33,578 bases of DNA from an uncultured Methanomassiliicoccales archaeon (GTDB lineage: Archaea; Thermoplasmatota; Thermoplasmata; RBG-16-68-12): contig CAZJIP010000004.1 in the NCBI GenBank assembly GCA_964546105.1, forward strand, positions 3,633 to 37,210. The letters run 5' to 3'. Made by a program: the position numbers and the translations under genes. Below, piece after piece: positions 1-25,432 of the stretch. Each line of letters opens with the position of its first letter. Position 1 is the stretch's first letter. The notes below the pieces were generated by a model. That model made no database searches, was not told the DNA's origin, and saw only the letters and a list, made by a program, of their open reading frames with translations.

Positions 1-82
1 TCGCGAGGATGGTCTTCCCGTCCTCCAAGAGGACGGCCCTCGTGCTCTTCGCGCCGACATCGATTCCCGCGGTAACCGTCAA
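1..82 (-). CDS. Partial CDS, 5' end only: second ATP-dependent activator subunit (BcrA/BcrD/BadFG ASKHA family), probably benzoyl-CoA reductase subunit D
   Basis: Not in the ORF track. TTG at 82 with GGAGG at 90-94 (minus strand). It reads MTVTAGIDVGAKSTRAVLLEDGKTILA, carrying the GIDvG phosphate-1 motif, and runs off the window edge. Confidence 0.8.
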   Translation of the reverse strand, partial: MTVTAGIDVGAKSTRAVLLEDGKTILA

Positions 83-95
83 CGCAGCGCCTCCA

Positions 96-902: not shown

Positions 903-906
903 GGCC

Positions 907-2178: not shown

Positions 2179-2209
2179 GGACTTCCGTCGCTTCCCTGAT
2201 CCCTATGGC

Positions 2210-2241
2210 GTCCAGGTAGACTTCTATCTTTACGTCTGGAC
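2210..2241. promoter_or_regulatory. Imperfect inverted repeat, candidate repressor operator
   Basis: GTCCAGGTA-N12-TACGTCTGGAC lies immediately downstream of the TATA box and spans the expected transcription start. Confidence 0.4.
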
Positions 2242-2257
2242 TTATATAAATCGCTTC
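2242..2257 (-). promoter_or_regulatory. Archaeal BRE/TATA promoter of the bcrB operon
   Basis: The minus strand reads GAAGCGATTTATATAA about 65 nt upstream of the bcrB ATG, an AT-rich island in GC-rich DNA. Confidence 0.7.
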
Positions 2258-2289
2258 CACCCAGCCTGGACCACGGGACCCGGCGCCCC

Positions 2290-3063: not shown

Positions 3064-3071
3064 GGACGCTC

Positions 3072-5155: not shown

Positions 5156-5262
5156 GATGCGTATTAGTCCTTGCTCCGCTCGCCCTAGCCGTTTCCCGCT
5201 TCGCGGCGGTCTGCGCGTCGCCCGGGCATCTTATATCGACCGCAACGCGTATCCGCTCTCCT

Positions 5263-6303: not shown

Positions 6304-6356
6304 ACAAGGAGGCTCCGCGGCCTCCCGCCCGCAAACGGAGGCAACCGAACGGGAAC

Positions 6357-7364
6357 CTATGGTGGGGACGCGGCGCGAGCTTGCCGCCACAGCTCCGTCA
6401 GCGCCAAGCGAACGTACAGATGCGCAACCCGCTTCCGGTGGTAGGGAGTGAGGTCCGTATTGTCCATGGGTTTCACGGCCTCGAAGACGGCCTTTGCCGC
6501 CCTCTCGACGAGGTTGTCGCTGAGGCGGCTCCCGACCAAGACGCGCTCCGCTTCCCCGATCTCGATGGGGGACGGCGCCACCGCGCCCACTACGATCCGG
6601 ACGAAGTCGCATCGTCCGCTCGGATCAATCCGCGCGGCGACCGCCAGCCCGAGAACCGGGAAGTCGGTCGATCCGCGACGACGGAGCTTCAGGTACGTGC
6701 TGAGGAGCCCGCCGGGCGGAGGGAGGACTACCTCTGCCAGAATCTCGTCCGCGGTCTTGTTGAGGTGCGCGATCCCGTCGTCCCGGAAGAACCCCCGCAT
6801 GGGAATCGTGCGTTCTCCTCGAACGCTCACCAGCCGCACACGTCCTCCGAGGGCAATGGCCACCGGCGCAAGGTCCGACGAGGACACGGCCCAGCATCGC
6901 GTGCTCCCGGGCGCCACACGGCAGACGTCCCCGTCCTTCTTCAGGCAGAAATCGACGGCTTGCCTCCAGAGGTAGGACTGGTCATAGTAGTTGCAGCGGG
7001 TGTCCGAGCAGAGGTTCCCGCCGACCGTGGCCATGGCGCGGATCTGCGGGGTTGCCACGAGGCCGGCCGCTTGCTTCAGGGCAGGATATCCCGCCGCGAC
7101 GGTTTGGTCCTGGATGAGCTCCTGAAGCGTCGTCATCGCGCCGATCGTGAGGCCACCGTCTCTGTTCCGCCGGATCCCGCGGAGCTCCTGGACCCTGCGG
7201 AGGCTCACGACTGCCTTGGGCTCAACGAGCTTGCGCTTCATGGACGGGTACAGGTCCGTGCCGCCGCCCACGAAGGCAGCGTGCCCTCCCGGCTCGGCGA
7301 TGAGCCGGACGGCCTCTTGGAGTGTGCGAGGCACGTGGTGGTCGAAGCCCGGGAGCCGCAGCAT
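6357..7364 (-). CDS. hcrB: 4-hydroxybenzoyl-CoA reductase beta subunit (FAD, extra 4Fe-4S)
   Basis: Starts MLRLP. Motifs GGGTDL and ATVGGNLC are followed by the HcrB-specific Cys insert RCNYYDQSYLWRQAVDFCLKKDGDVCRVAPGSTRC. TAATG overlap with hcrA. Confidence 0.88.
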   Translation of the reverse strand: MLRLPGFDHHVPRTLQEAVRLIAEPGGHAAFVGGGTDLYPSMKRKLVEPKAVVSLRRVQELRGIRRNRDGGLTIGAMTTLQELIQDQTVAAGYPALKQAAGLVATPQIRAMATVGGNLCSDTRCNYYDQSYLWRQAVDFCLKKDGDVCRVAPGSTRCWAVSSSDLAPVAIALGGRVRLVSVRGERTIPMRGFFRDDGIAHLNKTADEILAEVVLPPPGGLLSTYLKLRRRGSTDFPVLGLAVAARIDPSGRCDFVRIVVGAVAPSPIEIGEAERVLVGSRLSDNLVERAAKAVFEAVKPMDNTDLTPYHRKRVAHLYVRLALTELWRQARAASPP

Positions 7365-9760: not shown

Positions 9761-9769
9761 GTGCCGTCC

Positions 9770-10324
9770 TCACCTCGTCCGTCTTCGACGCGCGCCGCGG
9801 ATTGCGCTCATCGGCTTCACGTTCCGGGCACCCGACCTCTGCGCCCCTTCGAGGCGCATCTCTTCGGCTGCGTCTCGGACCGCCTGGAGGATCTTCGGGT
9901 AACAGCCGCAGCGGCACACATTGCCGGAAAGGCCCCACCGGATTTCATCGTCGCTTGGCGACGGGTTGGCCCTGAGGAGGGCCAGGGAGGACATGATCAT
10001 GCCCGGGGTGCAGTAGCCGCATTGCGCGCCCCCGAGGTCCGCGAAGGCCAGCTGGAGCGGATGGGGTTCTCCGTTCGCCTGGACGATCCCCTCAATCGTC
10101 GTGATCGCCCGGCCCTCGACGTCCGCCGCGAGGGTTATGCAGGAGAGATAGGGCTCGTCATCAACGAGGACTGTGCAGGCCCCGCACTCGCCGAGCTCGC
10201 AGCCGTGCTTCGTGCCCGTGAGGCCCAGATTCTCCCTCAGGACCTCCAAGAGGGTCCGGCTTGCCGGAGCCGTGACCTCCCGGGTCTCGCCGTTGACGCG
10301 GAGGAGCATCCTCAGTGCGGCCAC
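9770..10324 (-). CDS. hcrC: 4-hydroxybenzoyl-CoA reductase gamma subunit (2x 2Fe-2S)
   Basis: Motifs GTKHGCELGECGACTV, QCGYCTPG and GNVCRCGCY. Likely start is GTG at 10324 (GAGGAG upstream) or ATG at 10309. Confidence 0.87.
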   Translation of the reverse strand: MAALRMLLRVNGETREVTAPASRTLLEVLRENLGLTGTKHGCELGECGACTVLVDDEPYLSCITLAADVEGRAITTIEGIVQANGEPHPLQLAFADLGGAQCGYCTPGMIMSSLALLRANPSPSDDEIRWGLSGNVCRCGCYPKILQAVRDAAEEMRLEGAQRSGARNVKPMSAIRGARRRRTR

Positions 10325-10762
10325 GCTTCCCGGTCTCCTCGTCCGCAATCACGTGGAGATGTCTTAGGCTTATCGAAATCTCGGTGACGCGCAAGCCGGG
10401 GTTCATTCCCTCCCGCGGCTGGGCGGAACTCCTTCCATTCCCACACGTCGACCCACCCAAGACGAGAAAGCGCTCGTTCCCGGGAGGGGTCTCGAGGGGC
10501 CGAGGGAAAGGGATGTCAGGGCGGACCTGAGACCATCGGTCCGCGAGCGGCAGGGCGGGAGGATTTCCTCCCGCGTCAGGGGCGCTGCTCAATCTATACC
10601 CCATCGACCGGCAACCATCCTTCGCTTCGCGGTAGGGACAATCATGCCACGCTCCGTGGACGGACCCTCGGGGCCCCTGACCCAACCCTGCGCAATCACG
10701 GGGAAGGGGAGGATTCAAGTCCCCCCACGACGTTGACGGTGGCCAGGGGAAGCGGGGCCGTT

Positions 10763-12073
10763 ATGGAGGACGAGCGCCTCGTCCACAACTACATTGTCGA
10801 GCGGGGCCTGGCGGCGAACTTCCCCGCAGAGGTCCTCATCTGGGACGAGACCATGCGGGATGGGGAGCAAACCCCGGGCGTGGCCTTCTCCCCGGAGGAG
10901 AAGCTCCAGATCGCGACCCTCCTGGACGAGATGGGCGTGCCTCTGATGGACGTGGGGATTCCGGTGGTGTCCAAGGAGGAGGCCCGCGGGGTGAAGACGA
11001 TCGCCCATGCCGGACTCGACGCGTCGATCATGGCCGCGGCGCGCGCGGTCCGAAAGGACGTCGAGGCATGCATCGAGTGTGAGGTGGACGAAGTCTCCGT
11101 CTTCATTGCCTGCTCCGATCTGCACCTGAAGTACAAGCTCAATATGACGCACGAGCAGGTCAAAGAGGCCGCCGTGCGGGAGACGGAATACGCGAAGGAT
11201 CACGGCCTCAAGGTGTCCTTCGTCACGGAGGACACATTCCGAGCGGACATCGACTACGTCGTCGAGCTGTACAACGCCTGCATCGAGGCCGGTGCGAGCC
11301 GCGCCGTGCTCTGCGACACCGTCGGGGTGATGACGCCCGCAGGGATTCGGTGGTTCATGGAGCAGGTCAAGCCGCGGTTCCACAAGGTCCAGCTCTCCTT
11401 CCACGGCCACAACGACTTCGGCCTCGCAGTGGCCAACAGCCTCGCCGCGATTGAGGCTGGCGTCGAAGTGCCGCACACGTGCGTGAACGGCCTTGGCGAG
11501 CGCTCCGGGAACGCCAGCTTTGAGGAGCTCGTCATGGCCCTCGAATCCCTCTACGGATACAGGACGGGCGTGGACGTGTCGCGCATGTACGAGGTCTCGA
11601 GGCTCGTTGAGAACCTCAGCGGCATCCCCGTCGGCGTGAACAAGGCCGTCGTTGGCTACAACGCCTTCAGCCACGAGTCCGGCATCCATGCGGACGGCGT
11701 GATCAAGCACACCGCGACGTACGAGCCCATTCAGCCCGAGCGGATCGGACGGACACGACAGTTCATCTATGGGAAACACACCGGCTCAGCCTCGGTCGCG
11801 GAGAGACTGAAGTCGAGGGGCGTCGAAGCGTCCAGCGAGCAAGTCCAGAACCTCGTGCAGCTCATCAAGGAATATTCGGAGGGGAAGTCCAAGATAGATG
11901 CCCAGGCGTTCATCGAGCTGTTCCGGGAGCGGGAGGAGCGCCGTCGCGGAATTACCGAGGATGAGTTCTGGGTCTTGACGAAGCGCGCCGGCATCCCTCT
12001 GCCGAAAGGGATAGAACCGGCCTTCCCGAGGTATGACCTCAGACTGCCAAAGCGCCCCGGGTCCTTGTCTTAG
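10763..12073 (+). CDS. DRE-TIM metallolyase of the homocitrate/isopropylmalate/citramalate synthase family, lacking the C-terminal regulatory domain
   Basis: Motifs DETMRDGEQTPG, LCDTVG, HGHNDFGLA, NGLGERSGNA, HESGIH and GKHTG. Start taken as the ATG at 10763. Confidence 0.88.
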   Translation: MEDERLVHNYIVERGLAANFPAEVLIWDETMRDGEQTPGVAFSPEEKLQIATLLDEMGVPLMDVGIPVVSKEEARGVKTIAHAGLDASIMAAARAVRKDVEACIECEVDEVSVFIACSDLHLKYKLNMTHEQVKEAAVRETEYAKDHGLKVSFVTEDTFRADIDYVVELYNACIEAGASRAVLCDTVGVMTPAGIRWFMEQVKPRFHKVQLSFHGHNDFGLAVANSLAAIEAGVEVPHTCVNGLGERSGNASFEELVMALESLYGYRTGVDVSRMYEVSRLVENLSGIPVGVNKAVVGYNAFSHESGIHADGVIKHTATYEPIQPERIGRTRQFIYGKHTGSASVAERLKSRGVEASSEQVQNLVQLIKEYSEGKSKIDAQAFIELFREREERRRGITEDEFWVLTKRAGIPLPKGIEPAFPRYDLRLPKRPGSLS

Positions 12074-12156
12074 ACTACGTTTGTGACCGACGGCCCCGTT
12101 CGCTTTGGGTGAGGAGCGGAAGGGGATTGTGGTCTAAATCCCACCCGGTCCCCTTC

Positions 12157-13086
12157 TCACGTCTTCCTCCCGACGCTCTCCTCGTAGTCTGCGAGGCCTT
12201 TCCGGCTCGCATACCAGACCCCATCAATCTTCACGGCCTCCAGGACCCCCTGGCGCGCCCTAAGGGACAAATATTCCTGGGAGTACGGCGAATGGCGAGC
12301 GAGCGTCCTCAAGGGGATGAGGGCCCGCTCCGGTTCCAACGCGGCCAGATACGTGACGAGGGCCTCGTCGAGTGCCCGAAGGACGAAGCCAGCGAATGGG
12401 AGGAGATTCCCTGCATCCGCCGCCTGAAGGTGGCGGTAGTAGCGCAACCGATCGGAGACGCGCAACACGATTGGAGGATAGCCTCCGCTCATCAACGCGA
12501 GATTGGCTGCGAGCCGAGCGACCCGTCCGTTTCCATCGAGGAAGGGATGGACAAAGACGAGCCGATGGTGGAGATAGATACTTCGGAGCACGACTTCTCG
12601 GACCTTGGGCAGCTCGGCGAAGAGGGCATCCAGCATGGGAACAATCTGGGCGGGCTGCGGTGGAACATACTTAGCCCCCTCGATCCAAACCTGCTCTGTC
12701 CGATACTGTCCCGCGGAGTCGAGGATTCCCCGCGTAACCATCTCATGCAAGCGGCGCATCACGGCATGATCGATTTGGAGCCCAGGCTTCGCCAGACCCA
12801 CAATCCAATCGAAAGCCTTCGCATTGTTGGTTGCCTCGAGATGGTCCCGGAGGCTCTTTCCTCCAACCGTGATGCCCTCCTGAACGACGAGCCGAGTCTC
12901 GTTCAACGTGAGCGAGTTGCCTTCGATCGCGTTGCTATTGTACGTGTGCAGGATGCGGATCTGGTCTTGCAGGCTTCGGATCGCGTCCTTGGGGAACGGC
13001 CGGTGCTCGTGGAGACTCCGAAGGTTGCGCTGAATCCTTCCCCAGACCAGCGGTGGAAGATCCGAAACTAATATCGGTATTGGCAT
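12157..13086 (-). CDS. Fic family protein (class II AMP-transferase) with C-terminal HTH-like domain
   Basis: Canonical HPFLDGNGRVAR motif and N-terminal inhibitory motif SNAIEGN. The C-terminal segment YSQEYLSLRARQGVLEAVKIDGVWY looks like an excisionase/HTH. Confidence 0.92.
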   Translation of the reverse strand: MPIPILVSDLPPLVWGRIQRNLRSLHEHRPFPKDAIRSLQDQIRILHTYNSNAIEGNSLTLNETRLVVQEGITVGGKSLRDHLEATNNAKAFDWIVGLAKPGLQIDHAVMRRLHEMVTRGILDSAGQYRTEQVWIEGAKYVPPQPAQIVPMLDALFAELPKVREVVLRSIYLHHRLVFVHPFLDGNGRVARLAANLALMSGGYPPIVLRVSDRLRYYRHLQAADAGNLLPFAGFVLRALDEALVTYLAALEPERALIPLRTLARHSPYSQEYLSLRARQGVLEAVKIDGVWYASRKGLADYEESVGRKT

Positions 13087-13155
13087 AGTTTTCCGTTATC
13101 CGATAGGCCCGCGGCCATATATATCGGTATCGGTCGAATACCCAGTGGTCCGATA
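13071..13155. repeat. Cluster of CCGATA/TATCGG boxes over the fic promoter and start
   Basis: ATATCGGTATTGG (13071-13083) and ATATCGGTATCGG (13121-13133), plus CCGATA at 13100 and 13150. Confidence 0.65.
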
Positions 13156-13462
13156 TCTATCCACTCCACATTGGGCTGCCGAGGATGGCGACTTCATCGT
13201 CGGCTTGGACACCCTCGCCTGCCTCTCCCACGGGGACAATCGGCGGCTCCGCCCCGCCCTTGAGCTTTCGAAGAAGGAGCGCCGACCCGAGGGCACCTGG
13301 GCCCTGGACAAGGTCCATCCGGACCTCCGCGCGGGAGCGGGCTACCGGTTCTGCAAGAAACCCGAGCGGTTCGCCCTGGAGACAGGGGGCCGACCCACCA
13401 AGTGGATCAGCCTGACGGCCCTCCGGGTCCTGAAACGCATCGAGGAACTTGGTCGCGCGTGA
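13145..13462 (+). pseudogene. C-terminal remnant of a prenyltransferase/squalene-cyclase-like (alpha/alpha barrel) hypothetical protein
   Basis: RLRPALEL..K.RRPEGTW and GRPTKWISLTALRVLK resemble the C-terminus of a roughly 300-aa family. There is no room for the N-terminal part, because the divergent fic gene begins 60 nt upstream. Confidence 0.55.
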
Positions 13463-13480
13463 ACCGCGGATTCCGGCCCC

Positions 13481-14974
13481 TCAGCCCTGCGGTCCGTAGA
13501 CCGTGTAGTGCCAGGGCTTCCGGGCGGCGCCCGTGAGCTCGACCCAGACGTGCTTCACGTGCGTGTACTCTTCGATGGCGTACACGCTGAGGTCCTTGCC
13601 GAACCCGGACTGCTTGTAGCCGCCGTGGGGCATTTCGGAGACGAAGGGCAAGTGGTCGTTCACCGCGACGCAACCGGCACGGATTCCTGCGGCCAGGCGG
13701 TGGGCGCGGTGCACGTCCTTGGTCCACACGCTCCCGTACAGCCCGTAGATTGTGTCGTTCGCGCGCTCCAGGGCCTCCGCCTCCGTGTCGAAGGGGACCA
13801 CGGGGAGGACGGGACCGAAGATCTCCTCGCGGACGATGGCCATGTCCTGCGCGCAGCCGCCGAACAGGGTGGGCTCCAGGAAGAACCCCTTCGCGAGCGC
13901 CGCCTCCTGGGGGCGATGGCCGCCAAAGAGGAGCTGGGCACCGTCACTCTGGCCCGACGCCACGTAGGACTCCACCTTGGCCCGCTGGGCCTCGGTGACC
14001 AACGGACCCAGATCCGTCTCGCGCCGCCGCGGCAGGCCGATCGTTACCGTGGCGAGGATCTCGCGGACGCGCTTCAGGAACCGGTCGTACAGGGGCCGCT
14101 GGACGTAGTACCGCGCGGCCTGGGTACAGTCCTGGCCGCCGTTCACGAGGGTTCCGGCGACGGCCCCTTGGGCTGCGGCCTCGAGGTCCGCATCCTCGAA
14201 GACCACGAAGGGCGCCTTGCCCCCGAGCTCGAGGTGCACGCGCTTCGTCGTGCGGGACGCCTTCTCCATGATGTGCCGTCCGACCTCCGTGGACCCCGTG
14301 ACGGAGACCATCGCTACGTAGTCGTTCGAGGCGAGCTCATCGCCTACCACCGCACCGGGCCCTGTGATCACGTTCAGCGCGCCGGGCGGCAGGCCCGCCT
14401 CGAGCGCGAGCTTGCCTAACTCCAGCGACGTGAGCGGGGTCGGCGTCGCGGGCTTCAGGACCACCGTGTTTCCCACGGCGAGGGCCGGACCGATCTTCCA
14501 GATGGCCATCTGGAACGGATAGTTCCAGGGCGTGATCGACGCGACCACGCCTATGGGCTCGCGGCGGATGAAGGACGTGCCTCCGGCGCCATACTCCATG
14601 GACGCGCGCCCCTCCAGGGTGCGGGCTGCCCCTGCGAAGAAGCGCAGGTTGTCCACGCCCAGGGGGAAATCGGAGTCCCGAGACTGTTTGATCGTCTTGC
14701 CTTGGTTGTCCACCTCCAACTCCGCCAGGCGGTCGATGTCTCGCTCGATGAGGTCTGCAAACTTGAGCAGGACGACCTGGCGCTCCGACGGCGTCTTTCG
14801 CGCCCAGGGCCCGCGCTCGAACGCCTCGCGCGCCGCATCGATGGCGGACCGCGCGTCCTCGACGCCCGATTTGGGCACCCGATCGAGGACCTCGCCCGTG
14901 GCCGGGTTGACCACCGTGTACGTCTCGCCGTTCGCCGCTCCGATCCACGATCCGCCAATGAGTTGCTGACCCAT
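13481..14974 (-). CDS. NAD-dependent aldehyde dehydrogenase (aminobutyraldehyde/betaine aldehyde dehydrogenase-like)
   Basis: Motifs ITPWNYP, GSTEVG, LELGGKAP, catalytic NGGQDC, EEIFGPV and SEMPHGGYKQSGFGKDLS. Start taken as the ATG at 14974. Confidence 0.92.
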   Translation of the reverse strand: MGQQLIGGSWIGAANGETYTVVNPATGEVLDRVPKSGVEDARSAIDAAREAFERGPWARKTPSERQVVLLKFADLIERDIDRLAELEVDNQGKTIKQSRDSDFPLGVDNLRFFAGAARTLEGRASMEYGAGGTSFIRREPIGVVASITPWNYPFQMAIWKIGPALAVGNTVVLKPATPTPLTSLELGKLALEAGLPPGALNVITGPGAVVGDELASNDYVAMVSVTGSTEVGRHIMEKASRTTKRVHLELGGKAPFVVFEDADLEAAAQGAVAGTLVNGGQDCTQAARYYVQRPLYDRFLKRVREILATVTIGLPRRRETDLGPLVTEAQRAKVESYVASGQSDGAQLLFGGHRPQEAALAKGFFLEPTLFGGCAQDMAIVREEIFGPVLPVVPFDTEAEALERANDTIYGLYGSVWTKDVHRAHRLAAGIRAGCVAVNDHLPFVSEMPHGGYKQSGFGKDLSVYAIEEYTHVKHVWVELTGAARKPWHYTVYGPQG

Positions 14975-15047
14975 GGTCTGATCGACCGGGCCGATGGCGG
15001 GTCTCGTAATGAAGCCTGCGGCCGGCCCTGGCCGCACCCGAATCGAA

Positions 15048-15932
15048 TCAGAGAGGGGAGCGGCCGCGCCGCACGAAGGTCCCGTTCTGAAACTCCTCGA
15101 CCGCGGTCTCCAGCTCGCGCCGGTTGTTCATGACGATCGGGCCCCACCAGGCCACGGGTTCATGGAGCGGTTTGCCGGAGACCAGAAGGAACCGGAGCGC
15201 CTGGTCCATGGCCTCGATCCGGACCCGGCCCCCATCCTTGAACAGGATCAGATTCTCCGAATCCACGATTTCCCCGCTCTCCTCGTCGAAGCGACCGCGT
15301 CCGCCGAGCACGTAGGCGAAGGCGCGGTGGCCCTTCTTCACCGGATGCTCGAAGCGCGCATGGGGGGCGATCTGCACGTCGAGGTACTCGGGCTCCACGA
15401 CGATGTCCCGGACGGGGCCGTGGACGTCGCCGACCTGCCCCGCGATGACCCGGACGGTCACGCCTTTCGCGGCCTCGAACTGGGGGATTGTCGCGCTCTG
15501 GACCTCCTGGTAGCGGGGATCCATCATCTTGTGGTCCGCGGGGAGGTTCACCCAGAGCTGGAAGCCGCCCATCTTGCCGTCGTCCAGATGCTTGGGCATC
15601 TCCTGGTGGATGATCCCGCTTCCCGCGGTCATCCACTGGACGTCCCCGGAGCGTATGACACCTTTGTTTCCGATGCTGTCCTCGTGCTGGACGAAGCCGT
15701 CGAGCATGTAGGTGACCGTCTCGATGCCGCGGTGGGGGTGCCAGGGGAAGCCCGCCACGAACTCCGCGGGGTTCTGGGACCGGAAGTCGTCCAGGAGGAG
15801 AAAGGGGTCCAGCTTGGGGACCTCGTAGTATCCGAAGGCGCGCCGCAGGTGAACGCCCGCGCCCTCGATCGTCTCGCGGCTGGGCAGGATGGCCTCGAGC
15901 CCTCGGGCCCGGTCAGCGTTCGTTTCCACCAT
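15048..15932 (-). CDS. Pirin family protein
   Basis: Motifs DPFLLLD, GFPWHPHRGIETVTY, QWMTAGSGIIHQE, FQLWVNLP and GPIVMN. TTATATATAT lies just upstream (15953-15962, minus strand). Confidence 0.95.
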   Translation of the reverse strand: MVETNADRARGLEAILPSRETIEGAGVHLRRAFGYYEVPKLDPFLLLDDFRSQNPAEFVAGFPWHPHRGIETVTYMLDGFVQHEDSIGNKGVIRSGDVQWMTAGSGIIHQEMPKHLDDGKMGGFQLWVNLPADHKMMDPRYQEVQSATIPQFEAAKGVTVRVIAGQVGDVHGPVRDIVVEPEYLDVQIAPHARFEHPVKKGHRAFAYVLGGRGRFDEESGEIVDSENLILFKDGGRVRIEAMDQALRFLLVSGKPLHEPVAWWGPIVMNNRRELETAVEEFQNGTFVRRGRSPL

Positions 15933-16067
15933 GGGGAAGGCTAGGGCGCGGCGATATATAAGGGGCCTCTACGAAACCCCGTAGCCATGGAAGCCCGCGG
16001 AATTAGGGCGGCCTAACTCGGAGCACGGAATCCCGCGGGCGCGAAGCATGTCCATGGAACTGAGGCC

Positions 16068-16507: not shown

Positions 16508-17116
16508 TCAGGCCTTCGCGGACGCGGCGATGGGCTCCTCGAGGACGGAGCGCAACGCCTTGCGGAGCTCGCGGTAGCACTTCAGGAAGTTCTCGAACTC
16601 CTTGTCCGAGATCGTCATGAGATGGACGTACTCTAGGAGTTCCTGCTTGGCCAGGTAGCTCACATCCTCGAGCTCGTTGATGCGCTCGGTCCAGGGAGAA
16701 TGCGCGTCGGGTTCCTTCATGCGCTTGATGAGGTCGACGACCTGGGAGACCACGCCCGAGTCAACCTTCGCCTTGAAGCCCAGCTTGGTGAGCGCGCCGA
16801 GCGCTTCGCGGACCTCTTCCTCCAGGACCTTCGCGCCGCCCGACTCGCCGTGCGCGAGGTGGAACATCTCCGCCGTCGCCTGGTAGTACGTCTCGATGAA
16901 GTGATCCACGCGCTCCTCCCGCGCAATCTCCACCATGTCGGCGTCCTTCAGCTTCCGGATGTGGTGGTAGATGGCCTGAGGTGTCAGCTTGAGTTCCTCC
17001 GCAATCTGCGCGACGGTCATCTCCCGAGCCCGGAGGAGGTAGATGATTCGCCGGCGCGTCTCGTCTGCGAGGAGCTGGAAGGCCTCCGGGTCCTTGATTA
17101 CCTTGAACGACCGCAT
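16508..17116 (-). CDS. ArsR-family winged-HTH transcription regulator (archaeal type)
   Basis: IKDPEAFQLLADETRRRII...EMTVAQIAEELKLTPQAIYHHIRKL. Confidence 0.9.
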   Translation of the reverse strand: MRSFKVIKDPEAFQLLADETRRRIIYLLRAREMTVAQIAEELKLTPQAIYHHIRKLKDADMVEIAREERVDHFIETYYQATAEMFHLAHGESGGAKVLEEEVREALGALTKLGFKAKVDSGVVSQVVDLIKRMKEPDAHSPWTERINELEDVSYLAKQELLEYVHLMTISDKEFENFLKCYRELRKALRSVLEEPIAASAKA

Positions 17117-18898: not shown

Positions 18899-19333
18899 AT
18901 GGGATTGCCCGGCTTCGTGGCCTCCGTGGTATCCGGCATTACCGCCGCGGCGGGCTGGGTCTCCCATCGCATCCATTCCTTCAGCGTCACCCCACGCACA
19001 TGGACCTGCCTCGAGTGCCAAGTCCCCAACGAGCTCGATCGGGACACGTGCTGGAGCTGCGGCGCCGGCTACGGGGAAGATCCCCTCTATCCGAGCCACA
19101 TCCCTTTGAACCGCCGCTGGATCTGCCCGTCCTGCGCGGTGTGGAACGGGATCGCCCGAACGGACTGCTGGCGCTGCGGAAGCCTCCGAACAGACCCGCT
19201 TTTGCCATGTCCCCCTAGTGCAGCTCAGGTGCCTCTTCCAGGAAGTCCCGTTCCCGCAGCTCGCGGCGCTTCCAGCCCTCGAGCTCCCCCACGAAGTAGG
19301 GAAGGAGCCGCAACGAGACGTAGGAATTCATGA
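18899..19333 (+). CDS. Protein with two RanBP2-type (NZF) zinc fingers
   Basis: WTCLECQVPNELDRDTCWSC and WICPSCAVWNGIARTDCWRC both fit W-x-C-x2-C-x3-N-x6-C-x2-C exactly. The 3' end overlaps the convergent gene by 119 nt. Confidence 0.75.
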   Translation: MGLPGFVASVVSGITAAAGWVSHRIHSFSVTPRTWTCLECQVPNELDRDTCWSCGAGYGEDPLYPSHIPLNRRWICPSCAVWNGIARTDCWRCGSLRTDPLLPCPPSAAQVPLPGSPVPAARGASSPRAPPRSREGAATRRRNS

Positions 19334-19484
19334 GTGGGATTCCGAGCTGCTCCGAGAAGACGAGGAGATTGACCGCATCGTTGTACCGGAACCGGAGCTT
19401 CATCTGCTCCGAGTAGATGTCGTAGAAGAACAGGCCCCAGAATGATTCCTTCAAGATCCGGACCACCTGTCCCCAGCGGTTCAC
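19215..19484 (-). CDS. Small CstA/ArsA-associated protein ('cory-CC-star'-like), paralog 2, 89 aa
   Basis: GTG start at 19484 with a GAGGGGG RBS and AAACCTTTAT upstream. LLVFSEQLGIP..SYVSLRLLPY...WKRR..RERDF aligns without gaps to the ORF at 22743. Confidence 0.8.
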   Translation of the reverse strand: MNRWGQVVRILKESFWGLFFYDIYSEQMKLRFRYNDAVNLLVFSEQLGIPLMNSYVSLRLLPYFVGELEGWKRRELRERDFLEEAPELH

Positions 19485-19581: not shown

Positions 19582-20217
19582 GTGGTTGCCGTCGACCCCG
19601 ACCTCCTAGCTGTATTCGTCGTCGCGGGGGTCCTCATCGCCTGGTACCTCGTCGGCAGCATACGGAACCGACGTCTGGCTCGGCGAATCGCCAACGAGAT
19701 GCGGGACAGCCTGCTGGCCCTCGGCGGCACGTCGAAGGTTCATCCGTTCGGCACGACCGCGTTCCGGATGACGACGCAGGATGCGAAACCGCCCTTCCGC
19801 GACATCTCGGTCGTCGTGACCCTGCTGCCGCGGGAAATGCCCTTCAACTGGGCTATCGGGATCGCGCAGGGCCGCCGCGACACGGCGGTCGTGGAAGCCT
19901 CCCTCCGCCGATCGCCCCGGGCCGGATTCGAACTCGTGGACCCTGGGAGTCGCGTCGGCCGGAGGCGCAAGCGGGCGGTTTCCACTTGGTCCGCCATCAC
20001 CGTCGCGGGACTGGAGCGTCTCCTGCGCGCCAAGGACGAGAGGACCGCGAAGGCCCTGCTCGAGGCCCTCGAGCCGAGCGCCCTAGCGGCCATTTCGGCT
20101 CTCCATGTGACCGCAGGGAGCGAGCCCGGCATCGCGGCTTCCCTCGCCCTCGAGCAGGGCAACGTCTCGATGCTGATGTCGGCCATCCAGGGCCTCGCCG
20201 AACGCATGGCCGTCTAG
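19582..20217 (+). CDS. N-terminally membrane-anchored hypothetical protein, possible remote DUF1682/CCDC47 homolog
   Basis: TM segment LLAVFVVAGVLIAWYLVG followed by SIRNRRLARRI, then an alpha/beta domain with VVVTLLPREMPFNWAIGIAQGRRDTAVV. Confidence 0.8.
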   Translation: MVAVDPDLLAVFVVAGVLIAWYLVGSIRNRRLARRIANEMRDSLLALGGTSKVHPFGTTAFRMTTQDAKPPFRDISVVVTLLPREMPFNWAIGIAQGRRDTAVVEASLRRSPRAGFELVDPGSRVGRRRKRAVSTWSAITVAGLERLLRAKDERTAKALLEALEPSALAAISALHVTAGSEPGIAASLALEQGNVSMLMSAIQGLAERMAV

Positions 20218-20702
20218 TGACAACGGCTTCCCGCCAGCGCAGGGGGGAGCTCATCGAGCCCCGACGCATCCCCGCTGGCCATGAACTTCATCGTCAAGTT
20301 GCGCTGGGTCTCCTCGCAGCGATACGCAACATAGACCACCCGGAGGTGCTTGTTCCGGAAGAGGCCCGCCCGCATCCCGCCGTGGAGGAGAGAGCCGGGA
20401 TGACCGCCGACCTTGAAGGAGCTCTCCCGGGCGCCCTCGAGGAGGGGAGGACGGAGGGCTCCCCTCGCCGCGCGCACGTCGAACTCCATCGCGCGCTTCG
20501 CACTCTCGTCGATGAGGAACGCCGTGGCTTGCCCCTGCTGGGCCCACCGCACGCCGTTGTACGCGATCGTGTAGTCGATCTCGGTGGGGTTGCGTCCGAT
20601 GCGCACGTCCCAGTTCCCGGGAAGGCGGAGCACGAGGAAGTTGGTTGGCCCCAGGACGAAATGGGTGGCCGCCAGGAGGTGGTCCCGAACGGCCTCCGTC
20701 AT
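20214..20702 (-). CDS. Conserved-looking hypothetical soluble protein, 162 aa
   Basis: True start is the ATG at 20702 (MTEAVRDH), in ATGA overlap with the ATPase stop. Beta-rich pattern, YRCEET motif and C-terminal RCH. Confidence 0.78.
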   Translation of the reverse strand: MTEAVRDHLLAATHFVLGPTNFLVLRLPGNWDVRIGRNPTEIDYTIAYNGVRWAQQGQATAFLIDESAKRAMEFDVRAARGALRPPLLEGARESSFKVGGHPGSLLHGGMRAGLFRNKHLRVVYVAYRCEETQRNLTMKFMASGDASGLDELPPALAGSRCH

Positions 20703-21733
20703 GCCACAGCCGCCGGCGCCGGGGCGAAGGCCGGCACGTAGTCCATCATGTCGTGCGACACCCGGGCCACCATGTCGGTACCGGTGACCTCGGAGGGGTA
20801 CAGGGGGATGTAGGCCGCTACGAGGGGGCCGAGGTCTCGATAGAGCAGCTGCATGTACCCGAGCTGTTCCTGGTACTTGTTCGCCAGGTACTCTCCCGCC
20901 CCCTCCATCTGCGCGACCTCCGGACGGAGGATCTCGTTCACAATCACGCCGCCGACCGGGATGTTGAACTTCCCGACCATCCCGATGAATCGGCGGACGA
21001 CCGCAATCGGCAAGCCCAGGGGGAGGGTCACGAAGAAGAACGCCGTGCGTTCGGGGTCGATCAGGATCTCCTTCGCCTTCATGAACCGCTCGTTCATAGA
21101 GATCAGGTCGGCCATGAGCGGGTCCTTCTTGACCTCCTCCATCATCCGTTCCTTGCGGAACGAGAGCTGGACCCGGAGGGAGAGGGCCTCCCGGCGCGAA
21201 TCGATCATCCGGTTGAGCCAGAGCCCGTAAATCTTGCTCAGCCCGATCAGTCGGACGGCGTTCGCGACCGCGGCGGTGTCGAAGATCACGCGGTCGTACG
21301 ACTCCCCCTCCGCGAGGATGTAGTCCACCATCCGATCGAACATGGCGCTTTCTTCGAAGGCGGGGTTCGTCGTCGCGATCTCGATGAAGGGTCGGGCATC
21401 CAGGGGGATGTCCGCCCACTTGAGGAACTCCTTCACGCGGCCCTTGATGGAGTCGCGATACTTCTCGACGACCTCGGTCGTCTCCACCTCGACCGCGTGG
21501 ACGCCGTTCGCCCCCTTCACGGGACGGACCCGGCCGCCGGAGAGGTCCTGGCCGAACAGGCTCGACAGCGAGTGGACCGGATTCAGCGATGCCAGGAGGA
21601 CCTTCTCCCCGCTCGACGCGTAGTGGTAGGCGAGGCCTGCTGCGGAGACCGTCTTGCCGACGCCCCCCTTGCCGCCCGTGAAGATGTACCGCAACTTCGG
21701 CCGTTCGCGCAACAGGTCGGTTAGCTTAGTCAT
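20699..21733 (-). CDS. Get3/TRC40/ArsA-family ATPase 2 (degenerate switch motifs)
   Basis: Deviant Walker A GKGGVGKT, switch I SLNPVHSL, switch II FDTAAVAN and VIVN. Start ATG at 21733 with a GAGGTG RBS. Confidence 0.9.
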   Translation of the reverse strand: MTKLTDLLRERPKLRYIFTGGKGGVGKTVSAAGLAYHYASSGEKVLLASLNPVHSLSSLFGQDLSGGRVRPVKGANGVHAVEVETTEVVEKYRDSIKGRVKEFLKWADIPLDARPFIEIATTNPAFEESAMFDRMVDYILAEGESYDRVIFDTAAVANAVRLIGLSKIYGLWLNRMIDSRREALSLRVQLSFRKERMMEEVKKDPLMADLISMNERFMKAKEILIDPERTAFFFVTLPLGLPIAVVRRFIGMVGKFNIPVGGVIVNEILRPEVAQMEGAGEYLANKYQEQLGYMQLLYRDLGPLVAAYIPLYPSEVTGTDMVARVSHDMMDYVPAFAPAPAAVA

Positions 21734-21744
21734 GCTCCCCCACC

Positions 21745-22734
21745 TCACAGGCCCGGACCGTGCATGAGGTCCTCGGAGACGCGGGCGATCATGTCGAGGC
21801 CACGTGGCTCCCGGGGGTACATCGGGAGGACGGCCACCACCTTGGAACCGAATTTGGACTTGATCACGTCCATGTACTTCTGCTGCATCTCGGCGCGGTT
21901 CCGGAGAAACGCCGCGGCCTCGCCCTTCGCCGCGAGGAGTTCTGGCGGGTAGACCTGGTTCACGATGAGACCGGCCATTTGCAGGCCGAGGGAATCGAAC
22001 ATCTGCAGGGCGCGCTCCGTGTCCAAGATGGCCATCCTCTCGGGGATCAGGACCATGAAGAACGCGGTGCGCTTCTGGTCGACCATGAGGTCCGTGAAGC
22101 GGGTGATCTTGCTCTGGATGTCGCCGAGCTCCCGCAGCACCTCGTCCTCGGAGACCTTCTGCCCCTTGAGGGTGGCGGCCACGGCCTCATACTCCTGCGC
22201 CTTCTCGCGCGCCTCGGTGATTTTGCCGACCCACTTGCTGAGGATCTCCGCCATGGCGATCATCCGGACGCCGTGGCCGAACGGCGGCATGTCGAAGACG
22301 TAGAGGTCATGGCCGCTCGTTGACACGAGGTCCGCCATCGCGTCGTAGGTGGCCGACTCGTACATCGCTGGCTCCGCGGACGTGGAGTCGATGTATTCCT
22401 CGATCTCCGGCGGCAGCTCCGAGAGGCCGTACATCGTGAGGATCTTCTGCTTGACCTCAGCCTGGTAGTCTGCGACCCGCTTGTCCGCATCGATCTCGAC
22501 CACGTCGAGGTTCGGGATCACGGTCACCTGTCCCTTGCCGAAGATGTCCCGGTCGAAGATGTCGCTCAGGCTCGCCTGCGGGTCCGTCGAGAAGCAGAGG
22601 ACCTTCTGATGCCGCTTGGCGGCCATGTAGTGGCTCAGCCCGGCGCTGCAGGTCGTCTTGCCGAGCCCTCCTTTTCCGGCGAAGATGACGATGCCCTTGT
22701 CTCCCTTCTTCTCGAAGTAGGATGCGAGGCCCAT
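21745..22734 (-). CDS. Get3/TRC40/ArsA-family ATPase 1
   Basis: Motifs GKGGLGKTT, STDPQASLSD, FDMPPFGH, VLIPERMA and LIVNQV. Met-rich. Start ATG at 22734. Confidence 0.92.
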   Translation of the reverse strand: MGLASYFEKKGDKGIVIFAGKGGLGKTTCSAGLSHYMAAKRHQKVLCFSTDPQASLSDIFDRDIFGKGQVTVIPNLDVVEIDADKRVADYQAEVKQKILTMYGLSELPPEIEEYIDSTSAEPAMYESATYDAMADLVSTSGHDLYVFDMPPFGHGVRMIAMAEILSKWVGKITEAREKAQEYEAVAATLKGQKVSEDEVLRELGDIQSKITRFTDLMVDQKRTAFFMVLIPERMAILDTERALQMFDSLGLQMAGLIVNQVYPPELLAAKGEAAAFLRNRAEMQQKYMDVIKSKFGSKVVAVLPMYPREPRGLDMIARVSEDLMHGPGL

Positions 22735-22742
22735 CGACTCCC

Positions 22743-23033
22743 TCAAAAGACCTGGTCCGTGAAGTCCCGCTCGCGGAACACGCGCTGCTTCCAGCTCTTG
22801 ATGTTCGGCACCGCGTACGGCAGGATCCGGAGCGAGTAGTACGGCGGGATGACGGGGACGCCGAGCATGTCGCCGAGGGTGATGAACATGAAGAGGTGCT
22901 CCAGGTACATTCGGGTTCTCAGTGCTGCGGTTACGTGGCCGTGGGCCGCCATTCCGTACAGCACACCCTTCGCGGCGGTCGCGACCTTCCGACCCCGACC
23001 CTTCGACCTGCCGCGCCCCTTCGAATCAGACAT
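22743..23033 (-). CDS. Small CstA/ArsA-associated protein ('cory-CC-star'-like), paralog 1
   Basis: EHLFMFITLGDMLGVPVIPPYYSLRILPY...WKQRVFRERDF. Lies between cstA and the ATPases. Alternative start at 23054. A GAAAGCTTTTT promoter-like box is at about 23073-23083 (minus strand). Confidence 0.82.
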   Translation of the reverse strand: MSDSKGRGRSKGRGRKVATAAKGVLYGMAAHGHVTAALRTRMYLEHLFMFITLGDMLGVPVIPPYYSLRILPYAVPNIKSWKQRVFRERDFTDQVF

Positions 23034-23096
23034 CTGGCGACCGCTCCCTGTCATGGGATGCGTGCCTGGCTCAAAAAGCTTTCAGGCAGACGCTGA

Positions 23097-24902
23097 CTAC
23101 TTCTCCGGCGTGCCTCCGTCCGCTGCCGCCGGCGCCTTCGCCCGGGCCGCCGCCAAGCTCGTGCGGTAGCTCTGGAACAGGCGGAACGCCATCAACAGCC
23201 CGATCAAGAACAGGATCGCGCCAACGGCGACGAACACCGCGTTGACCGTCAGAGCGGCCCATGCGTAGGCCGAGACGTTGATCGGGGCCCGTACGTTGCG
23301 CAAGATCCAGTTGACCGGATCCGGCCTCGCCGCGGAGAACCGGACGCCCCCGAGGTAGTTCGCCACCGAATAGAGGAATGAGTACGTCTGCCAGAGCAAC
23401 GCCGCGAGGGTCGTCACGATCATGAAGATGGCTGGGATCAGCGAGTACCGCGAGGGAGCACGCGCCCGCGTGAGGTGAATCGTGATCAGCATGATCGCAA
23501 GGCCTGCGAGGAGCTGATTCGCTCCGCCGAAGTACAACCACAGGGCCCACCAGCTACCCGAGATCGCGAAGAGCCAGGGCACCACGAGCCCTACGATCGT
23601 GGACGTGTGCTTGTTCGCAAGGATGCGGAACCGGCCCTCGCTCCAAGTTTCCTGGGCGACCAATCGGAAGAAACGGGTGACCAACGCCTGGACGGTGATC
23701 GCGTAGATCACGAGGACGAGCCCGAAGAACGTCGTCAGCACGGCATTCGTCAAGCCGCCAAGGAAAGGGCTGGTGAGCGCCACGGCGCCGTTGACCCAGG
23801 AGAAGAAGTTCGCCCTCGCCGGGTCCAACACGAAGCTCGGAGCGAGCACCATGTAGGCGGCCAGGGAGGCCAGCGCGAGGAGGCCCTCGGAGAGCATGGC
23901 TCCACCGCCGACGGGCAAGGCATCGGTTTCGATGTCGAGCTGCTTCGACGACGAGGAGCTGCTGACCAGACTGTGCCAGCCCGAGATCGAGCCGCAGGCG
24001 ATGGCGACGAAGAGGATGGGCCACAGGGGTCCGATCGTGCTGTCGAAGAACGTCGTGAAGGCGGGCAACTGAACCGTCAGGTTGGTGAACGGCGACACGA
24101 GGGCACCGATCAAGATGAAGATAATGGCCGCGTACGCCGGGTAGAACGCGAGGTAGTTCGTCGGCTGGATGAAGCTCGGCGTTGGGAGGACGGCGGCCAA
24201 GTACAGGAACCCGAGGACGACCGCGGCCCAAATCGCGACGTTCCAAGCGCCGTAGGAGAGCGAAACCGGGAACAGGACACCCAAGTAGATGCTGAGTACC
24301 ACGAGGAGCAGCCCGATCCCCGTCACGGCGAAGACGTTCACCTTGTAGCGGTAGAGGAGCTGGCCACAGAGCACACCGGCCGCGAAGATCCCGAGCGTGG
24401 CGACGAACGTGCCAGGGAAGAGGTTCCAGAATGTGGCAATCAGCGCGATGAAGGTGGCCGAGATGATGATGAGGTAGAACAGGACGAAAGCGAGCAGGTT
24501 CCGTCGGCCCGAGGCCCCCGTGAACTCGTAGGTGATGGGGCCGAAGGAGCGACCCTCGTTGCGCACCGACAGCATCATCGCACCGTAGTCCTGCATCCAC
24601 CCGATGAAGAAATTCCCGCCAATGATCCACAGGAGCGCGGGAAGCCAACCGAACGTGACCCCAATGAACGGTCCAAGGATCGGGCCCAAAGCCGCGACGC
24701 TCTTGAACTGGTATCCCCAGAGCACGTAGCGACTCACCGGGAAGAACTCCACCCCATCCATGTACATGTGCGCGGGAGTCGCCCGCTTCGCGTCGCTCTT
24801 CCACACATGGCGGTCAACCCACTTGCCGTAGCCCATGTACGCGATCAGGTAGGCCACGATCGTGACGACAACCCACAGAAACGGCGTGTCCAGTAGGCCC
24901 AT
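23097..24902 (-). CDS. cstA: Carbon starvation CstA family membrane transporter (divergent)
   Basis: Motifs TPAHMYMDGVEFFP, GPILGP, FGWLPALLWI, PLWPILFVAIACGSISGWHSL, GGAMLSEG and FGGANQLLA, with many TM helices. Start ATG at 24902 with a GGGAGG RBS. Confidence 0.92.
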   Translation of the reverse strand: MGLLDTPFLWVVVTIVAYLIAYMGYGKWVDRHVWKSDAKRATPAHMYMDGVEFFPVSRYVLWGYQFKSVAALGPILGPFIGVTFGWLPALLWIIGGNFFIGWMQDYGAMMLSVRNEGRSFGPITYEFTGASGRRNLLAFVLFYLIIISATFIALIATFWNLFPGTFVATLGIFAAGVLCGQLLYRYKVNVFAVTGIGLLLVVLSIYLGVLFPVSLSYGAWNVAIWAAVVLGFLYLAAVLPTPSFIQPTNYLAFYPAYAAIIFILIGALVSPFTNLTVQLPAFTTFFDSTIGPLWPILFVAIACGSISGWHSLVSSSSSSKQLDIETDALPVGGGAMLSEGLLALASLAAYMVLAPSFVLDPARANFFSWVNGAVALTSPFLGGLTNAVLTTFFGLVLVIYAITVQALVTRFFRLVAQETWSEGRFRILANKHTSTIVGLVVPWLFAISGSWWALWLYFGGANQLLAGLAIMLITIHLTRARAPSRYSLIPAIFMIVTTLAALLWQTYSFLYSVANYLGGVRFSAARPDPVNWILRNVRAPINVSAYAWAALTVNAVFVAVGAILFLIGLLMAFRLFQSYRTSLAAARAKAPAAADGGTPEK

Positions 24903-25036
24903 CTTTCGCCTCCCCAATCCCGGCGAGACATCCCTGCCAGGACCCGCCGGGGTATGTCGTGTCAGGCGCTTAAATCTGTGGGGTGTGATTTACCGCGAAC
25001 GAAATCCGTATGGCGCGAGACCGCCTTGGAGGCTAC

Positions 25037-25432
25037 GTGAACCCCGAACCGGTGAGGGTGCAAATGCTCGGCCTCCTGCCCGCCGTCCTCAAGCCTTGCG
25101 GACCGGCCTGCGCCCAGCCGTTCATGCAGCGGCCCGTGGAGCGACTCTCCTCGGAGGAGATAGAAGAGACCCCGTCCTTCGTCCGGGAGAACGGCGAAAG
25201 GGCCCACGCCTTCGCGGAGCGGCTCGTCCGAGACTTCGGAGCGGGGGTGCGGATCGAAGTCGTGGGCCTGGACTCCCCGCGCGGGGTCTGGCTCGGGGCG
25301 CGGCACCGGATCGGAAGGGGTTTCGCCGTCATCGTCGACGGACGGACGGTCGTCCGCAATCCTCAGGAGTACGAAACCCTCCGGGTCGCCGTGGAGAAGG
25401 CCCTTCAAAGCTCGATAACGGGATCAGGATGA
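25037..25432 (+). CDS. Hypothetical thioredoxin-fold-like protein with CxxxC motif
   Basis: GTG start after GGAGG. CGPAC near the N-terminus, then L..DFG..VRIEVVGLDSPRG and AVIVDGR. Divergent from cstA. Confidence 0.72.
   Translation: MNPEPVRVQMLGLLPAVLKPCGPACAQPFMQRPVERLSSEEIEETPSFVRENGERAHAFAERLVRDFGAGVRIEVVGLDSPRGVWLGARHRIGRGFAVIVDGRTVVRNPQEYETLRVAVEKALQSSITGSG

Follow-up and report, generated by a model that had tools for sequence, protein, structure and literature searches.

A stretch of 33,578 nucleotides from an uncultured Methanomassiliicoccales archaeon (contig CAZJIP010000004.1; the whole stretch is referred to as the window) carries two adjacent genes for Get3/ArsA-fold ATPases, one with a complete nucleotide site (ATPase 1) and one with a degenerate site (ATPase 2), next to a gene for a CstA-family permease. 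What is a pair of ATPases with unequal sites made for? The best explanation, put forward here as probable and with moderate confidence, is that the two proteins form a fixed heterodimeric ATPase with one working ATP site, and that this ATPase is the nucleotide-driven part of a CstA-permease module. The evidence is taken up in the order of the nucleotide sites, the pairing of the two genes, their neighbours, and a structure model of the complex.

Two ATPases with Unequal Nucleotide Sites

Both proteins are full-length members of the TRC40/GET3/ArsA family TIGR00345 (211.3 bits for ATPase 1 and 177.1 bits for ATPase 2, cut-off 135), and both match PF02374 ArsA_ATPase (E 1.6e-66, 225 bits, and E 4e-50, 171 bits; cut-off 24.3). 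They are 28% identical to each other across 304 columns, and their nearest solved relatives are archaeal Get3 proteins (entries 3ug6, E 1.1e-44, and 3zq6, E 3.1e-38). As single-domain chains they are unlike the fused two-domain ArsA, the NCBIfam models of which score far below cut-off (TIGR04291, 79.4 and 76.3 bits versus 650; NF041417, 125 and 98.5 bits versus 800). Models of the mycobacterial proteins BagA and BagB (NF053622, NF053621) gave 25.5–39.9 bits against cut-offs of 400 and 521, with matches in the N-terminal region only.

Both ATPases carry the deviant Walker A motif GKGGxGK[ST], its two lysines included, and the motif is invariant in 27 + 27 aligned orthologues. In ATPase 1, the P-loop GKGGLGKT at residue 24 is followed by STDP at 53 and DMPPFGH at 152, and the catalytic switch I aspartate, at the position of yeast Get3 D57, is present (Asp51). 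In ATPase 2, GKGGVGKT at residue 26 is followed by SLNP at 54 and DTAAVAN at 157, and this aspartate is replaced by asparagine; alignment to 3ug6 places the Asn under the Asp of STDPAHS, and DTAAVAN under DTAPTGH. ATPase 1 has two Cys residues (33 and 51) and no CxxC, ATPase 2 has zero Cys and hence no CxxC, and the CxxC region of M. jannaschii Get3 aligns with a Cys-free stretch. The methionine content is roughly double that of the neighbouring proteins, with 5.5% in ATPase 1 and 4.4% in ATPase 2 versus 0.6–3.9% across 13 other genes of the window. An earlier description of the locus, made without database searches and called here the sequence-only reading, had listed both open reading frames (ORFs) with these motifs, a Cys-free ATPase 2, the lack of CxxC in either protein, and Met-rich chains, all of which were confirmed. 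It had also listed as known that the change from Asp to Asn in switch I abolishes hydrolysis. In yeast Get3, D57 primes the attacking water (PMC10248533), and the D57N variant binds ATP without hydrolysis, retains the closed dimer, and gives stable ATP-bound dimers and tetramers (PMC12506534).

The same description had proposed an alignment of orthologues, and this alignment revealed that the Asn is not peculiar to the genome. Among the 120 best homologues of ATPase 2, which are 64–100% identical to it and the source names of which include Thermoplasmata, Anaerolineae, and Ktedonobacteraceae, SLNP[VI]H is found in 118/118 P-loop-bearing proteins, the remaining two being without the N-terminus; DTAAVAN occurs in 120/120, and 104/120 are without Cys. 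Loci were also read as DNA, 41 in all: 21 from a genome collection, mostly of soil Thermoplasmata together with one Anaerolineae, one Pyrodictiaceae, and one Geoarchaeota locus, some of them cut by contig ends, and 20 from Chloroflexota. They carry Asn in 39/39 ATPase 2 orthologues, and Asp in 37/37 ATPase 1 orthologues that include the P-loop. Two irregular gene calls were seen in this set. The ATPase 1 orthologue of locus L009 (992–1878) is split into two overlapping frames, which points to a frameshift or an assembly error, and the long ATPase 2 ORF call of locus L015 (3908–4957) passes through a stop near its start.

Further residues remain fixed in the aligned orthologues. In ATPase 1, Asp51 and the switch II pattern D..P.GH are invariant; in ATPase 2, the same holds for the Asn and the switch II Ala-Asn, and also for the P-loop, the A-loop Pro, and the VN-motif Asn that binds adenine. 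Because P-loop, VN Asn, and A-loop are kept alongside the invariant Asn and Ala-Asn, the ATPase 2 site is read as one that binds without hydrolysis; this is the pattern of a site apparently kept for nucleotide binding, not for hydrolysis. The deviations of the two proteins from the canonical motifs are complementary, with DPQAS in ATPase 1 versus NPVHS in ATPase 2, and GH versus AN. Among representatives at 50% identity, the more distant full-length relatives (44–49% identical) carry STNPVHS, STNPIHS, SLNPDHA or STNAVHN, with a switch II of the DTAPTAN type, and representative P0123 carries Ser at the Asn position; below ≈ 35% identity, the canonical STDPAHS and DTAPTGH reappear. The Cys residues of ATPase 1 are absent in a distant subclade; hence no Cys is conserved in either ATPase, which makes an ArsA-type metalloid site unlikely and supports the sequence-only reading in its view that arsenite is not what is bound here.

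Pairing, Phylogeny, and Distribution

The gene immediately upstream of ATPase 2 is that for ATPase 1 in 21/21 loci of the genome collection and in 20/20 Chloroflexota loci. Within the genus, genomes hold matches to TIGR00345 either as adjacent pairs or not at all, save for fragments at contig ends. A tree of 60 rows, built by maximum likelihood, joins the clades of ATPase 1 and ATPase 2 as sisters (support 100/98). Each clade divides into the same two subclades, and a canonical single-domain protein, P0145, is placed at the base of the ATPase 1 clade. The picture suggested by the tree is that of one old duplication followed by co-divergence of the two proteins; because the proteins were sampled through the search with ATPase 2 and the tree is rooted at its midpoint, the order of the evolutionary events is left unproven.

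Fused ArsA-like proteins were considered as Rosetta-stone support for a heterodimer and were rejected as such, representing a parallel case and not a fusion of this pair. Among 83 long fused representatives, the switch I Asp is missing from one half of four (P0147, P0180, P0184, and P0240), its place being taken by Asn, Ser, Asn, and Pro, respectively. P0147 is only 25–29% identical to either ATPase, and P0147, P0180, and P0184 cluster with other fused proteins in the tree, in which P0240 was not placed; no search was aimed at longer fused forms of the ATPase 1/ATPase 2 pair. Loss of one catalytic Asp seems to have arisen more than once in the Get3/ArsA fold.

The distribution of the pair is patchy. 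An ATPase 2 orthologue is present in 23/79 genomes of the order, 8 of these being among the 24 high-quality genomes, and the orthologue, as a pair with ATPase 1, in 19/37 other genomes of the genus; in Chloroflexota, a protein of the ATPase 2 clade was found in 36/401 genomes (400 sampled plus the centre genome G479). A TIGR00345 match at E ≤ 1e-20 is missing in 48/79 genomes of the order, including genomes more than 93% complete, and no ATPase 2 orthologue at E ≤ 1e-60 was obtained from 400 other sampled genomes of the phylum, in searches run with a single protein or family model against incomplete genomes, such that not found does not equal absent. The source genome itself (83% complete) holds only these two family members, aside from a P-loop-only match to PF02374. 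The patchy occurrence and the many genomes without a Get3/ArsA gene argue against a housekeeping targeting role, and an accessory, laterally shared module would fit the distribution better than a housekeeping targeting factor.

The CstA-Linked Cluster and Its Partner Proteins

The cluster includes the permease gene in 18/20 Chloroflexota loci, and likewise in the loci of Thermoplasmata and in that of Pyrodictiaceae. Small CstX-like proteins, two of which (S1 and S2) are encoded in the window, occur in 20/20 Chloroflexota loci, and this S family was found in every locus reaching far enough, in 1–3 copies. Its members have 70–116 residues, are likened to published CstX by size and position, and share a conserved core of ≈ 70 residues (...YGM..H....EHLF.L.T.GD.LG.P.LPPYYSLRLLPY.VP.I..WKRR.LRE.D). 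The protein Atlas, and the Atlas alone, labels the family DUF7990 (score 0.95). The NCBIfam model NF041419, ‘cory-CC-star’, is matched by 36/36 aligned members, the best at E 2.9e-11 and every one short of the 80-bit cut-off, with the copy of the window at 34.5 bits, and no aligned member ends in Cys-Cys; judged by these matches, the S proteins are relatives of the cory-CC-star proteins, not members. Literature searches found no papers on either ‘cory-CC-star’ or ‘DUF7990’. A control search with NF041419 gave a match below cut-off in Haloferax volcanii and none in Corynebacterium glutamicum, and the accession number of this model is near that of NF041417, which models haloarchaeal ArsA; in haloarchaea, a small protein encoded beside a fused ArsA might represent a related system. 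Homology of the S proteins to E. coli YbdD (DUF466, YbdD/YjiX), for which an ‘FRER’ motif had been the prompt, was rejected, with an hhalign probability of 0.6% over 18 columns.

Two further partners have predicted folds. The fold model of protein T (mean predicted local distance difference test score, pLDDT, 88.8) is thioredoxin-like, with one invariant Cys after the first strand and a second Cys nearby; the top Foldseek rows are thioredoxins at weak scores (E 6e-3 and above), and Thioredoxin_3 of Pfam is matched by 7/21 members of the family. An assignment of T as an ArsD-like metallochaperone was not supported, ArsD of Pfam being matched by 0/21 members at E ≤ 1. The gene for T is divergent from that for CstA in Thermoplasmata, lies between small genes in locus L017, and follows ATPase 2 in locus L018, and its presence at three different cluster positions across three lineages suggests a functional tie rather than a chance neighbourhood. 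Protein Y (mean pLDDT 90.5) has an all-beta, Mog1/PsbP-like model. In VIA-align it reached Z 9.5 to 2xb3_A (root-mean-square deviation 3.2 over 126 residues), Z 9.3 to Mog1 (1jhs_A; 3.8 over 133 residues), and Z 8.4 to the Eag-type chaperone SciW, another SciW entry (6xrr) holding a bound transmembrane domain; such alignment scores indicate a shared fold at most, not function. Y was found in Thermoplasmata and the closer Chloroflexota subgroup only; its Cys129 and a C-terminal Cys-His are invariant, and it gave no Pfam or NCBIfam match. The CstY-like protein, with relatives in most loci, shows a hydropathy of 2.41 at residues 9–27 and is likened to published CstY by size, position, and membrane helix. 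A weak Pfam match to CCDC47, a subunit of the PAT complex, was obtained with residues 11–43 of this protein (E 0.059).

A Structure Model of ATPase 1, ATPase 2, and S1

The three chains were folded together, only S1 was scored, and the median of three runs was taken. In this ternary model, S1 reaches an interaction prediction score from aligned errors (ipSAE) of 0.67, the runs agree in at least 89% of the contacts, and the partner pLDDT is at least 63. The best control, in which ATPase 2 was swapped for an unrelated protein, gave 0.30, and two controls with unrelated small proteins gave 0.00. Residues 12–58 of S1 contact ATPase 1 at 90–131, 154–179, and 195–210, and ATPase 2 at 96–129, 158–179, and 210–217, that is, in the helical subdomains which form the client groove in Get3, and the contacts include the last switch II residue of both subunits, His154 of ATPase 1 and Asn158 of ATPase 2. 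Conservation in the columns of the interface exceeds the average (0.86 vs 0.70, and 0.85 vs 0.68), and the ATPase 2 interface is mostly hydrophobic (21/29 residues). The model favours binding of S1 in a groove common to both ATPases. The sequence-only reading had expected the pair to bind hydrophobic helices. The modelled small hydrophobic protein in the shared groove agrees with one part of this expectation; the other part, a general factor for tail-anchored proteins, did not hold up.

Comparison with Known Systems

Clusters with the order cstA-cstX-(cstY)-arsA homologue were described by Castillo and Saier in 2010 from comparative genomics only (PMC2963123), with a CstX of ≈ 90 residues, an archaeal, single-helix CstY of ≈ 210 residues, and single-domain ATPases of ≈ 330 residues. 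In their ‘cluster 15’, adjacent ATPase pairs from two organisms are 25–31% identical, no ars genes are found in the clusters, and the authors proposed that CstA is energised by the ArsA homologue, to which CstX links it. On the SxD motif they stated that its D ‘can be substituted only by N’, and they drew no conclusion from this (PMC2963123). The locus described here, with its CstA, its adjacent ATPases of 333 and 349 residues (28% identical), and a small protein and a 211-residue single-helix protein in the places of a putative CstX and a putative CstY, is a further member of this CstA-linked ArsA-homologue cluster known since 2010. Unlike the present account, the available portion of that paper contains no interpretation of the Asn, no asymmetry of a complete and a degenerate site, and no mention of thioredoxin-fold or Mog1/PsbP-fold genes. 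It was the only publication found to name both ‘CstX’ and ‘CstA’, in a search outside which most subscription journals lie. The reading with one live site, the model of a groove-bound CstX, and the thioredoxin-fold and Mog1/PsbP-fold partners do not appear in the literature searched, and all of these are predictions. For the permease family, a further study describes E. coli CstA together with the unrelated small protein YbdD as a pyruvate uptake system (PMC5847655).

The likeness to Get3/TRC40 extends to the fold, the deviant Walker A motif, switch I and switch II, the A-loop, and the helical Met-rich subdomain, and the Asn of ATPase 2 sits at the position of D57, matching the engineered hydrolysis-deficient D57N variant of the yeast protein. 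Get3 forms symmetric homodimers that carry a zinc site of the CxxC type and handle many tail-anchored proteins as clients; unlike Get3, the pair consists of two diverged subunits without CxxC, with a natural asymmetry, a patchy occurrence, and a fixed linkage to CstA and CstX. ArsA of the ArsAB pump likewise has two homologous halves and is thought to energise a secondary carrier, and its DTAP switch II serves as a signal path. It is, in contrast to the separate genes described here, a single fused chain, with three essential Cys residues and two Asp-bearing sites, where the present pair lacks a conserved Cys and has Asn at one site. Among two-gene systems resembling Get3, the other known one is that of BagA and BagB of Mycobacterium tuberculosis (Rv3679/Rv3680), adjacent Get3/ArsA-fold paralogues that were co-solved (6bs3–6bs5), the similarity of which to the present pair is at the P-loop level only; no link of BagAB to CstA turned up in the accessible literature, and a literature search on prokaryotic Get3/ArsA heterodimers yielded two plant reviews. 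In heterodimeric ATP-binding cassette transporters, one site hydrolyses ATP, and the degenerate site binds ATP and holds the dimer. With their unrelated fold and architecture, these transporters provide an analogy of mechanism only.

Proposed Mechanism and Alternative Explanations

From the motifs and their conservation, the gene linkage, the co-divergence, and the predicted folds we infer formation of a heterodimer, loss of hydrolysis at one of its sites, binding of CstX, and coupling to CstA. The sequence-only reading had put forward an obligate heterodimer. The fixed pairing of a complete with a degenerate site that this implies gains support by inference from invariant motifs, adjacency in 41/41 loci, and sister clades. 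In the module, which would comprise CstA, the CstX-like small proteins, the CstY-like membrane protein, the thioredoxin-fold protein, and the Mog1/PsbP-fold protein, the complete site on ATPase 1 would hydrolyse ATP, with ATPase 2 contributing its signature lysine to this site in trans. The ATPase 2 site would bind nucleotide with little or no hydrolysis, given its Asn in place of the catalytic Asp and its Ala-Asn in place of the switch II Gly-His, and its role would be to hold the dimer in the closed state or to time that state. One hydrophobic, Met-rich groove, built from the helical subdomains of ATPase 1 and ATPase 2, would receive the conserved hydrophobic core of the CstX-like protein, and this core would touch the final residue of switch II in either subunit. 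CstX would then link the ATPase cycle to CstA, be it as a coupling subunit or as a client delivered to the permease.

A more specific proposal, which is tentative and rather doubtful in its details, takes the pair as a dedicated single-site motor, in which CstX is both ligand and transmission element. Its Pro-rich hydrophobic core would lie in the composite groove, touching the His of the active half and the Asn of the silent half, ATP at the silent site would keep the dimer closed, and hydrolysis at the live site would release CstX or re-position it on CstA. If this were true, a secondary carrier would become ATP-gated or ATP-driven, and the pair would represent a natural intermediate between ArsA, the pump energiser, and Get3, the chaperone.

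Several points speak against the heterodimer within a CstA module. The literature searched yielded no biochemical evidence on the module or its relatives, and the contact with CstA is at the level of a proposal. An Asn at the catalytic position may permit slow hydrolysis. Two of the Chloroflexota loci depart from the linkage, L072 having no CstA within 8 kb and L067 reaching the end of its contig. The hydrophobic segment of the S family is borderline, with a median 19-residue hydropathy of 1.59 (15/36 members reach 1.6), and holds a conserved Gly-Asp and several Pro residues. It is not clearly a membrane helix, and it is atypical for a Get3 client. With regard to the ternary model, the contact between ATPase 1 and ATPase 2 lies outside the score. 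The mark that was applied is reached by 116/157 solved complexes and 2/215 mismatched pairs, a calibration which is only rough because our own alignments and three chains were used, and since solved Get3–client complexes exist, the pass of the model may partly reflect memory.

One alternative, an improbable one, is a pump in the style of ArsA-ArsB-ArsD for a soft metal, a metalloid, or a thiol-reactive solute, in which T would hand the ligand to the ATPase pair, and the pair would energise CstA. ArsA does energise the secondary carrier ArsB, and the same was proposed for CstA by Castillo and Saier (PMC2963123). T, which stays in the cluster despite its moving position, could offer its invariant Cys and nearby second Cys, Y its Cys129 and C-terminal Cys-His, and a regulator of the ArsR family is encoded 2 kb away, with a homologue downstream in 10/21 loci. 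The ATPases themselves stand against such a pump, with no conserved Cys in either and ATPase 1 Cys-free in the distant subclade, and so do the results for T, namely 0/21 matches to ArsD, 7/21 to Thioredoxin_3, and Foldseek rows of weak thioredoxins. ArsB, Acr3, and ArsC are missing among the 54 ORFs of the window that were scanned, and relatives of the permease in E. coli import pyruvate (PMC5847655).

A second alternative, likewise improbable, is the view of the sequence-only reading, according to which the heterodimer is a free-standing Get3-like targeting factor or holdase that captures tail-anchored or other hydrophobic membrane proteins generally and delivers them to the membrane. It would be in line with archaeal Get3 as best solved relative (3ug6, 3zq6), with the Met-rich helical subdomain and the lack of conserved Cys, and with a source genome that holds no other PF02374 member save the P-loop-only match. 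This view had missed the CstA/CstX setting of the pair, which is always accompanied by CstX-like genes and nearly always by CstA, and it fits poorly with 48/79 genomes of the order having no TIGR00345 match at E ≤ 1e-20, with a pair present in 19/37 other genomes of the genus, and with the 400 other sampled genomes of the phylum in which no orthologue was detected at E ≤ 1e-60.

A third alternative, two independent homodimers in one operon, with ATPase 2 as a nucleotide-dependent switch resembling an ATP-locked dimer of the ParA/MinD type and with a partner of its own such as Y, may draw on the stable ATP-bound dimers and tetramers of Get3 D57N (PMC12506534) and on the fold that Y shares with Mog1, the entry of which is titled Ran-binding protein, but is likewise improbable in view of the strict gene adjacency and co-divergence, the drop of the S1 score from 0.67 to 0.30 upon replacement of ATPase 2, the complementary deviations (DPQAS vs NPVHS, GH vs AN), and the precedents of fused ArsA and of the Rv3679–Rv3680 co-crystal entries.

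Organization of the Locus

The CstA gene and the four genes that follow it on the minus strand, S1, ATPase 1, ATPase 2, and Y, have stop and start codons that overlap or nearly touch each other (Table 1). The stop of S1, for which starts at 23054, 23033, and 22964 are candidates, overlaps the TTG start of ATPase 1. ATPase 1 has 333 residues from this TTG or 329 from the ATG at 22734, the likely start, at which the sequence-only reading had its range end. Its stop is overlapped by the GTG start of ATPase 2, which has 349 residues from the GTG or 344 from the ATG at 21733, again the likely start. Y was absent from the genes listed in the sequence-only reading, and its ATG overlaps the stop of ATPase 2 (ATGA). 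A longer ORF for S2, reaching 19730, would overlap the gene on the opposite strand.

Table 1. Genes of the CstA-linked cluster, in coordinates of the window
Feature	Coordinates	Strand	Description
CstA-family permease	23097..24917	minus	606 residues; PF02554, E 1.1e-101; directly upstream of S1
S1	22743..23054	minus	small CstX-like protein, Atlas label DUF7990
ATPase 1	21745..22746	minus	Get3/ArsA-fold ATPase, complete site GKGGLGKT, STDPQAS, DMPPFGH
ATPase 2	20699..21748	minus	Get3/ArsA-fold paralogue, degenerate site GKGGVGKT, SLNPVHS, DTAAVAN
Y	20214..20702	minus	162 residues; all-beta Mog1/PsbP-like predicted fold
CstY-like protein	19582..20217	plus	211 residues, N-terminal membrane helix; convergent with Y
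S2	19215..19484	minus	second CstX-like paralogue, 89 residues, GTG at 19484 (likely start)
T	25010..25432	plus	140 residues, thioredoxin fold (predicted), Cys pair after first strand; divergent from CstA

The regulator of the ArsR/HTH_5 family (16508–17116, minus strand; E 5.9e-15) has a long C-terminal domain and lies 2 kb from S2, and the homologues downstream of the cluster in 10/21 loci were seen in the genome-collection set, some loci of which are cut by contig ends; clusters of this type were stated to be without arsR by Castillo and Saier 2010 (PMC2963123). Positions 1–16000 of the window encode a 2-hydroxyacyl-CoA dehydratase with its activator (HGD-D, BcrAD_BadFG), two enoyl-CoA hydratases, a zinc alcohol dehydrogenase, a three-subunit molybdopterin dehydrogenase (MoCoBD, FAD_binding_5, Fer2_2), and a homocitrate/HMGL-like synthase, as well as a Fic protein, an aldehyde dehydrogenase, a pirin, and a glyoxalase. 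No arsenic genes are among the genes of this region, and the Pfam matches of the 54 scanned ORFs include none to ArsD, as was the case for ArsB, Acr3, and ArsC.

Implications

The Get3/ArsA fold is known in two roles, as energiser of a pump in ArsA and as chaperone of hydrophobic tails in Get3, and the module described here may join both. ATPase 2 is a natural counterpart of the D57N variant made in the laboratory, and archaea and bacteria alike have it fixed as one member of a pair. For the genome itself, a better annotation follows, the pair being probably neither an arsenic pump nor a general tail-anchor factor. If the pair drives or gates a CstA-family carrier via a groove-bound small protein, this would explain the cluster predicted in 2010, and would provide a testable model for the CstA family, the small partners of which, such as YbdD, have no known mechanism.

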